Below are positions 57,270 to 58,851 of a stretch of DNA of 64,000 nt, one piece after another. The translations under genes and the position numbers were made by a program. The stretch lies in NCBI GenBank assembly GCA_964016885.1, contig OZ024744.1, positions 126,480,001-126,544,000 of the forward strand, given 5' to 3'. Origin of the DNA: Eledone cirrhosa (Eukaryota). The stretch's first letter is position 1. Each line of letters starts with the position of its first letter. The notes below the pieces were generated by a model. The model saw only the letters and a list, made by a program, of their open reading frames with translations, did no database searches and was not told the origin of the DNA.

Positions 57270-57877
57270 TATATATTTTAGACCACATATCAACCTAATA
57301 TATATATATATTTCCTATCAAATCTGTAGCTAAAGACATAAAGTCAGCCTCACTACTTCATTCTGACAAGATATCAATGTATGACTAAAGATGAAGAAGA
57401 TACACCACGCTGTAATGTGGCCGTGTAGGCAACACGGTAAAAACCTCCCAGTCCCACACTGTAAATGTGGTTGGTGTTAGGAAGGGCATCCAGCTGTAGA
57501 AAACCCGCCAGACGGTCCTATGCGAACAAGACAACCACTCTTGCTTTAAGTGGGAAAACTCCCGTCCAAACCCATGCAAGCGTGGAACATGGACGTTAAA
57601 TGATGATGATGATGTATATATATATATATATATATATAATATATTTAGAAACACACAGATACATGCGGACACACACATATATACATGAATGCATCCGCAC
57701 CCAACTGTGAGTTAAGGGTGCCAACTTCACCGATGTTGCTCAATGAATGACCGGGACAGACCAATTCAGTTGAACTAGACTGAACCAGTATCAGAGTTAA
57801 AAATACATTATGAAGAGAGAAGAAACATTTAGATATAATTAGTAATAAAATGTATCATACCTAAACTGCTCCTAAAT

Positions 57878-57967
57878 TCCTCGACTACGTAGTTTCGTGG
57901 CATAAACAAAAACAATATATCATAAAGATATAGAGTCCCTGCGAGGTCTGCCGACTTATCAAGAGGA
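57878..57967 (-). ncRNA. Type-I hammerhead, family H5 (antisense copy)
   Basis: Exact reverse complement of 58627-58716. Confidence 0.78.
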
Positions 57968-58626
57968 TACCTCATTTTACTAGTCTCAAGAACGCGTCTA
58001 CACGACGTGAGAAAGAATCCCAAAAGGCGGAGGGGGAGATAGTCACGCGATATAACGGTCGAGAAACAGAGCTAAGCCTCTTATAACCCCGAAGAAAATA
58101 CCACAGAGGCGGAGGGGGTATTCATATCGAGGCCGCAGAAGAGGTGGTGAAGAAGGCTAATTATATCTAAATGTTTCTTCTCTCTTCATAATGTATTTTT
58201 AACTCTGATACTGGTTCAGTCTAGTTCAACTGAATTGGTCTGTCCCGGTCATTCATTGAGCAACATCGGTGAAGTTGGCACCCTTAACTCACAGTTGGGT
58301 GCGGATGCATTCATGTATATATGTGTGTGTCCGCATGTATCTGTGTGTTTCTAAATATATTGTTAATAACTCCCTCTGGTCGAGCAATCTTTGAAGTGTG
58401 GGGACAACTGGAAAGCTTCCATTACTCATACTTCTAGCCTTCTTCACCACCTCTTCTGCGGCCTCGATATGAATACCCCCTCCGCATCTGTGGTATTTTC
58501 TTCGGGGTTATAAGAGGCTTAGCTCTGTTTCTCGACCGTTATATCGCGTGACTATCTCCCCCTCCGCCTTTTGGGATTCTTTCTCACGTCGTGTAGACGC
58601 GTTCTTGAGACTAGTAAAATGAGGTA

Positions 58627-58716
58627 TCCTCTTGATAAGTCGGCAGACCTCGCAGGGACTCTATATCTTTATGATATATTGTTTTTGTTTATGCCACGAA
58701 ACTACGTAGTCGAGGA
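58627..58716 (+). ncRNA. Type-I hammerhead, family H5, U3-A8 core variant
   Basis: uccuc-UUGAUAA-gucggca…ugccac-GAAA-CUACGUAG-UC|gagga. Stem I is a perfect 5 bp, stem III is the 10-nt palindrome ACUACGUAGU, GUC site. Confidence 0.8.
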
Positions 58717-58788
58717 ATTTAGGAGCAGTTTAGGTATGATACATTTTATTACTAATTATATCTAAATGTTTCTTCTCTCTTCATAATG

Positions 58789-58851
<63 letters not shown>

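Follow-up and report, generated by a model that had tools for sequence, protein, structure and literature searches.

A retrozyme-like 595-bp tandem repeat with Penelope-type insertion ends in the genome of Eledone cirrhosa

Structure of the locus

In the window, the 64,000-nucleotide stretch of Eledone cirrhosa DNA analysed here, an insertion at 57,638-58,791 contains pieces of one repeat unit both in tandem and in inverted order. The question raised by this locus is how such an arrangement is made, and from what kind of template. Comparison of the region with itself by BLAST gave three matches: positions 58435-58791 are an inverted match of 58159-57803 (357 bp, one mismatch), positions 58157-58361 are an inverted match of 57842-57638 (205 bp, no mismatch), and a direct repeat of 40 bp joins 58157-58196 to 58752-58791 with a period of 595. 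The E-values at the locus range from 0 to 4e-17, which excludes chance. The unit was numbered U1-U595, with U1 at window position 58362, and the features placed on this basis are given in Table 1.

The insertion consists of two arms whose 5' ends meet in the centre and whose 3' ends both face (TA)n, the last 3 nt of arm 2 overlapping the TA repeat. An earlier note, made from the letters alone, had read the plus part as A-C-B-A(start), a unit of about 595 bp with terminal redundancy, preceded by a nearly identical inverted copy of B-A in which B joins A as it would in a tandem; the self-BLAST agrees with both descriptions (period 595, 40-bp redundancy). The same note had proposed a recent insertion. 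Judged by the identity of the arms, which differ at one of 522 compared positions, the insertion is indeed young. Since each arm carries a single predicted hammerhead, this copy would be unable to free a monomer by double cleavage.

Table 1. Features of the two-armed insertion, in positions of the window
Feature	Position	Strand	Basis
(TA)n target, left side	57615..57637	.	sequence reading
Arm 1 = U74-U595, 522 bp, ends at distal fixed 3' end (57638)	57638..58159	-	
165-nt tail (U431-U595), terminal on arm 1 only	57638..57802	-	
Predicted type I hammerhead, arm 1; predicted cut between 57883/57882	57879..57968	-	plus-strand motif mirrored via self-alignment
Inversion junction, 3-nt microhomology common to both arms	58157..58159	.	
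Arm 2 = U391-U595 then U1-U430, 635 bp (1.07 units), proximal fixed 3' end	58157..58791	+	
40-bp terminal redundancy	first copy 58157..58196, second 58752-58791	+	self-BLAST
Segments A, B and A-start	A 58157-58361, B 58435-58751, A-start 58752-58791	+	self-BLAST
Segment C (U1-U73), arm 2 only	58362..58434	+	self-BLAST
Long predicted hairpin (U520-U585), ends about 10 nt before distal end	58286..58351	+	predicted fold
Predicted type I hammerhead, arm 2	58626..58715	+	motif search
(TA)n target, right side	58792..58861	.	sequence reading

None of the listed short-read contigs spans the inversion joint of this particular locus. Short-read contigs of other runs contain head-to-head joints at varied positions, and the layout, which recurs genome-wide as well as in these contigs, is not a general assembly artefact.

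The insertion is flanked by the 3' end of a SINE-like repeat on one side and a reverse transcriptase (RT) fragment on the other, and a Tc1/mariner-like copy with TIRs and an in-frame stop is found nearby at about 55960-57270 (all labels given by eye). Elsewhere the window contains a long inverted repeat round a TA-rich spacer (11213-12713 / 15187-15598) with a third copy nearby, an interstitial array of telomere-type hexamers of about 1.4 kb that adjoins (TAC)n arrays (27327-28706), and 84-bp tandem arrays resembling C2H2 zinc-finger genes (1183-1998, 36608-37921 and 48700-51424). The zinc-finger arrays, along with the TA microsatellites, would fit an octopus genome.

Family size and insertion ends

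A search of the 3.0-Gb genome with the unit returned 1,512 candidate relatives. The 40 that were scored are 99% identical, and many of them are tandem with a period of 595. Moreover, a 23-mer from the hammerhead core occurs 7,458 times in the genome and its reversed control not once. Tandem periods are 595 and about 591 bp, and arms reach up to 4.9 units. The longest stop-to-stop frame inside the element encodes 80 aa, the GC content is 41.8%, and a tblastn comparison with Penelope proteins gave no match below E 0.16. Having no ORF for RT and GIY-YIG, the 595-bp element is not an autonomous Penelope-like element.

Insertion ends were mapped in 39 top-hit insertions and in 50 loci sampled in positional order from the first 54 Mb of contig 1. 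Not tallied were a segmental duplicate in L117, a middle piece in L100, and two loci, L089 and L110, whose identity was under the cut-off. The outer ends are fixed at two sites 165 nt apart, a proximal one at U427-U436 and a distal one at U590-U20, and the inner 5' ends vary. The variable permutation points expected by the earlier note thus occur at the inner 5' ends but not at the outer ones. The note had also named what would speak against it, namely fixed ends with the TIRs of a DNA transposon; this was absent, the two fixed ends being unlike sequences.

One proximal end (U430) is paired with one distal end, at U594-U17, in 42 of the 45 mapped two-armed insertions. Two of the others have one non-standard end, and the last (L044) has the same end twice; L044 was rejected as a same-end pair, as it consists of two separate neighbouring insertions. 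The single arms of the position-ordered set comprise 11 proximal, 11 distal and one ending elsewhere; the top-hit set is skewed to U430 ends because of the query. In a forward test of the end rule, 19 further loci were picked on the U430 end alone and ten proved to be two-armed, all ten with mixed ends (10/10), the rest being eight single arms and one copy cut by the locus edge. Sixteen loci picked for a variant included seven two-armed insertions, again all mixed (7/7), and four loci without a scored match. In an older subfamily (72-80% identity, 30 loci) there are 16 head-to-head copies, ten of them mixed and none with the same end twice, and six of the 16 have one non-standard alignment end. 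Genome-wide, 1,218 proximal and 1,143 distal end junctions were counted on the forward strand, the only strand on which the distal count is valid, reverse matches being counted several times.

Either arm may be the longer one (medians 668 vs 670 bp in the top-hit set), and about half of the copies are single 5'-truncated arms. Nearly all of the mapped ends have (TA)n as their 3' flank, and target duplications are unreadable inside such repeats. Of the first 100 proximal ends listed, 18 have A at U427, a position at which 165 of 165 internal units have G; in some arms the change to the TA target thus comes about 4 nt earlier. Altogether the family carries a Penelope signature, composed of fixed 3' ends, 5' truncation, an inverted 5'-truncated copy and a one-sided tail. 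At one locus (L117, G000:C1:19617500-19626500) a whole two-armed insertion has been duplicated together with its flanks, 2,554 bp apart.

The predicted hammerhead

The hammerhead implied by the earlier note was recovered by motif search: each unit has one predicted type I hammerhead of the U3-A8 type, located on the strand that bears the fixed 3' ends. In arm 2 the predicted stem I has 5 bp, the U3-A8 core lies at 58632-58638 and the GAAA at 58698-58701; stem II has 6 bp with a long extension, stem III is short and palindromic, and the cut is predicted after 58711 (U350). Both the U3-A8 core and the palindromic stem III have been described in Penelope hammerheads (accessible text of PMC4209133). 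At gathering and E-value thresholds, Rfam returned no ribozyme in the sequence.

Among 19 variants that were chosen, stems I-III show no change and 100% pairing. Only the 5' half of the motif is an unbiased sign of conservation, as the 3' half had served to select most of the copies. Eight pairs of the extension vary, each on one side and with pairing kept (changes of the A-U/G-U type); two-sided covariation was found at none of the pairs in these 19 variants, and the shuffle control was not exceeded. Diverged copies keep the invariant hammerhead core. When the fold of the whole monomer was compared with 40 shuffles, the hammerhead strand had a z of -6.05 and the opposite strand a z of -0.94; the hammerhead by itself is not unusually stable (z -0.43). 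As to activity, eight of nine predicted retrozyme dimers of Xenopus were uncleaved in vitro, according to the accessible text of 10.64898/2026.07.22.740005. A second hammerhead-like motif, with a canonical C3-G8 core and unrelated to the unit, lies on the plus strand of the window at about 13995-14040.

Variants, cut-site crossings and junctions

Lineage variants were followed in 105 insertions, five indel-prone stretches being excluded. In 216 cases a variant was fixed throughout the units of an insertion, in 15 it was mosaic, and at sites covered by both arms the counts were 110 fixed vs 3 mosaic. At 11,872 sites with at least three units, 64 differences were confined to a single unit and four were common to two units, which means that most arrays were born whole. 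The four shared derived sites (twice in L075, and in L091 and L064, that is 3 of 43 insertions with at least three units) show that some duplication took place after insertion. Two variants illustrate arrays that differ as a whole. That of L108 is present in 8 of 8 units (seven of them exact pattern matches) and in no other array, with five lone matches elsewhere in the genome. That of L078 has 25 genome matches, distributed over every unit of L078 (7 of 7), both arms in each of two insertions on other haplotypes, four mosaic cases and single copies; no other multi-unit array of the L078 haplotype was found. No multi-unit parent array was found for the L078 and L108 variants in the single assembly, from which one could be absent.

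The arms cross the predicted cut site without a scar, no indel being found at U345-U356 in 235 crossings, and 5' ends are not enriched there (2 of 164 observed vs 1.9 expected). A weak cluster of 5' ends occurs at U519-U532 (13/164, p 0.035-0.048), and this could be the transcription start of a linear RNA. A contig of 620 nt in sequencing run X4, a run of undefined kind, spans one whole unit and fits a circle as well as a tandem; given the undefined kind of the run, it was not counted as evidence.

Of 53 junctions between arms, 37 are direct and 16 have inserted bases, and three of the 53 are fold-backs. Microhomology of at least 2 nt is present in 22 of the 37 direct joins, compared with 17% by chance (p 6e-9). 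Private variants shared by a whole insertion, as in L078, L108 and other multi-unit insertions, are also peculiar in that, on the RNA strand, 8 of 26 are A-to-G changes vs 6 of 122 single-unit variants (p 5e-4). This excess may come from RNA editing, from errors of the RT or from selection for G-U pairs; as the changed sites are no more often paired (5/8) than other A's (61%), RNA editing is not shown.

Candidate enzymes and family A

The genome was searched for GIY-YIG domains, and 50 of the 150 listed loci, out of 10,597 candidates, were examined. No alignable similarity to the 595-bp unit was found among these 50 loci or among 30 old copies. One group of candidates, family A, is an autonomous Penelope of the Neptune type, with an RT, a CxxC linker and, at the C-terminus, a GIY-YIG. 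It carries a U3-A8 hammerhead motif and inserts into (TA)n. Its two 3' ends are separated by 68 nt, and their final bases are similar to the two ends of the unit, as short motifs only. In 30 loci picked on the tail, 17 short copies are two-armed; 14 of these combine a proximal with a distal end, the other three have a truncated partner, and none has the distal end twice. The long two-armed copies are likewise all proximal plus distal (3/3). In family A, 22 of 45 arms (46 if one omitted long arm is included) have their 5' end within a single 7-nt window that lies 29-31 nt below a TATAAAA, as expected for a linear RNA with a fixed start, and family A can serve as a linear-template control in the same genome.

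Families B to G were viewed by eye only and B and E share some of these traits, so that family A is one candidate among several for the partner of the unit. Two loci were considered and set aside. L199, a candidate same-end pair of family A, consists of separate neighbouring insertions. L081, an apparent chimera between an arm of the unit and an arm of family A (a loose end in run X5 was noted along with it), was dropped as proof of partnership: its unit end and its family A end are both distal, and the arrangement is explained if the unit was inserted later, on a shared (TA)n, next to a family A copy of greater age.

Family A is also represented in the window by a short two-armed copy of its terminal repeat at 9973-10338, with a proximal and a distal end and the U3-A8 motif at about 10159. 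A partial tandem of family A was observed on the minus strand at L149 (G000:C1:145868000-145877000), with hammerheads 4,979 bp apart and a frame of 938 codons. The family A tail has 7,028 exact genome matches, mostly very short two-armed copies from one predicted transcription start.

Proposed mechanism

Mobilisation by an enzyme of the Penelope type is very probable for the 595-bp family, and its arms are likely to arise by paired priming at two sites. The template was probably a circle, a point that we hold with less assurance; a circular or otherwise re-copied monomer has indirect support in the variants shared by whole arrays and in the scarcity of mosaic and shared differences. Taken as a whole, the reading that we prefer, with moderate confidence, is a paired two-strand priming by a Penelope-type enzyme at two fixed sites of one probably circular RNA monomer. 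Multi-unit copies would be transcribed, and their hammerheads may excise the monomer, likely as dimers formed through the palindromic stem III, after which the monomer would be ligated. A dimer of the GIY-YIG/RT protein would then nick both strands of a (TA)n target; synthesis would begin at U430 in one active site and at U595 in the other and would run round the circle for a variable distance in each case, after which the two cDNA ends would be joined through microhomology. Where one start fails, a single arm would remain.

The inversion fits two priming events better than one template switch, since the two arms of a pair have different fixed 3' ends, one of each kind. The earlier note had linked the insertion to retrozymes and Penelope-like elements, and that link holds, the family being a tandem repeat of retrozyme-like character whose ends are of the Penelope type; the template switch in one cDNA that it had invoked for the inversion gives way to two primings, which are better suited to the 42/45 and 10/10 pairs carrying both fixed ends. 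In the accessible text of PMC11167929, on an enzyme of the anole, two internal RT start sites bound the tail, both strands are extended and a dimeric protein is predicted. No difference in start site between the strands was seen there, nor any homology of the start site to the target; unprocessed, uncut RNA was the main substrate, with no reads ending at the cut site. Circles have been demonstrated for other animal retrozymes, and the copying of such circles by Penelope enzymes has been put forward as a proposal (both in the accessible text of PMC7229834).

A stricter form of the mechanism, to which we would give an even chance, makes paired priming by the two halves of the dimer on one RNA obligatory, each array being a rolling-circle copy of a single RNA molecule, a circle made by the hammerhead, in which A-to-G changes are kept. 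Obligatory paired priming at two fixed sites would explain the one-sided tail together with the inverted arm. The genomic counts bear on both the priming and the circle questions, through one start site per arm and one template molecule per insertion. In addition, the family supplies a defined substrate of 595 nt, two predicted start sites and candidate young enzymes.

Alternative explanations

The main rival to a circular template keeps the same two-site priming and lets it act either on uncut linear multimers transcribed from homogeneous master arrays of very young age, or on a linear monomer that is copied again through precise jumps; we regard it as unlikely, with more to be said for it than for any of the others. 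The seamless crossing of the cut site fits uncut RNA equally well, the anole enzyme used unprocessed RNA with no read ending at the cut (accessible text of PMC11167929), and the weak 5' cluster at U519-U532 points the same way. Against it, no multi-unit parent of the whole-array variants was found in the assembly, mosaic arrays are almost absent, and arms reach 4.9 units, whereas linear copying alone would shorten arrays. Work on R2 leads one to expect junction errors from template jumps, yet none of the 235 crossings has an indel. A later growth of the tandem by unequal crossover and gene conversion, as in the satellite model (10.64898/2026.07.22.740005, accessible text), would account for the four shared derived sites in 3 of the 43 insertions with at least three units. 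It is very improbable as the origin of the arrays, given the 64 single-unit against four shared differences at 11,872 sites and the private variants that span both inverted arms, and it leaves the end rule unexplained.

If both arms came from one cDNA, by a template switch or by a self-priming fold-back of the kind modelled in PMC3846280 (accessible text), a haplotype common to both arms would follow, as observed, and 3 of 53 junctions are in fact fold-backs, in which both arms start within 2 nt. This is nonetheless an improbable general explanation: the other 50 junctions are not fold-backs, a switch gives no reason for the other fixed end found in 42/45 and 10/10 pairs, and the longer arm may be of either kind (668 vs 670 bp). 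Least probable of all is a DNA element (MITE, foldback or Helitron type) or an artefact of assembly. The locus does have the look of a long inverted repeat, one of its ends is preceded at about 10 nt by a hairpin, and no listed contig covers the junction of this locus. Against these points, the outer ends are different unit positions with unlike sequences, half of the copies are single 5'-truncated arms, folding is strand-specific and the hammerhead core invariant in diverged copies, and similar joints occur in independent short-read contigs.

Comparison with known systems

Twin priming of LINE-1, in which primers from both target strands give a head-to-head inversion joined through microhomology, resembles the present case in its product. 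In the unit family, unlike LINE-1, the start sites are fixed and internal and there is no poly(A); furthermore LINE-1 arms abut, whereas those of the unit family overlap by hundreds to thousands of bases.

The resemblance to Penelope-like elements, taken from the accessible parts of the papers cited, is closer. Neptune-type elements (PMC8557442, PMC3846280) also have 5' truncation, partial tandems and an inverted 5'-truncated copy, and Penelope-like elements share the tail at one end only, the AT-rich or (TA)n targets, the two internal start sites (PMC11167929), the palindromic stem III and, in schistosome elements, the U3-A8 variant (PMC4209133). The tail is longer here, 165 nt in the unit and 68 nt in family A compared with 30-40 nt (PMC8557442, PMC3846280), and it is used once per arm pair in the unit family, whereas in the Penelope papers it is optional or often at one end. 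The unit family also differs in having no ORF, arms of up to 4.9 units and no fixed 5' stop. The origin of tandem, inverted and tailed Penelope insertions is called unresolved in the accessible text of PMC8557442 and PMC11167929. We found no paper on the 595-bp family or on a strict rule of one end per arm, although subscription journals, Repbase or supplements may hold either.

With the animal non-LTR retrozymes, as presented in the accessible text of PMC7229834 and 10.64898/2026.07.22.740005, the unit shares the organisation as a tandem repeat without coding capacity, a single type I hammerhead in each unit, a GC content under 45% (41.8% here), dispersed monomers and multimers without LTR architecture, a strongly self-paired predicted fold, and co-occurring Penelope-like elements that have been proposed as movers. 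It is larger, at 595 nt compared with about 170-400 nt for invertebrate retrozyme circles (PMC7229834), and its own circle is putative. Its U3-A8 core and the long extension of its stem II are further departures from the animal retrozymes described there. The accessible text of PMC7229834 does not describe the head-to-head arrangement of arms, with two fixed ends, that the unit family has, and many Xenopus retrozyme families have a matching pLTR (10.64898/2026.07.22.740005, accessible text), whereas none was found for the unit among the 50 GIY-YIG loci or the 30 old copies. Retrozymes and the Penelope tail are both already published, and the locus is a new member of the non-LTR retrozymes that carries a Penelope insertion signature.
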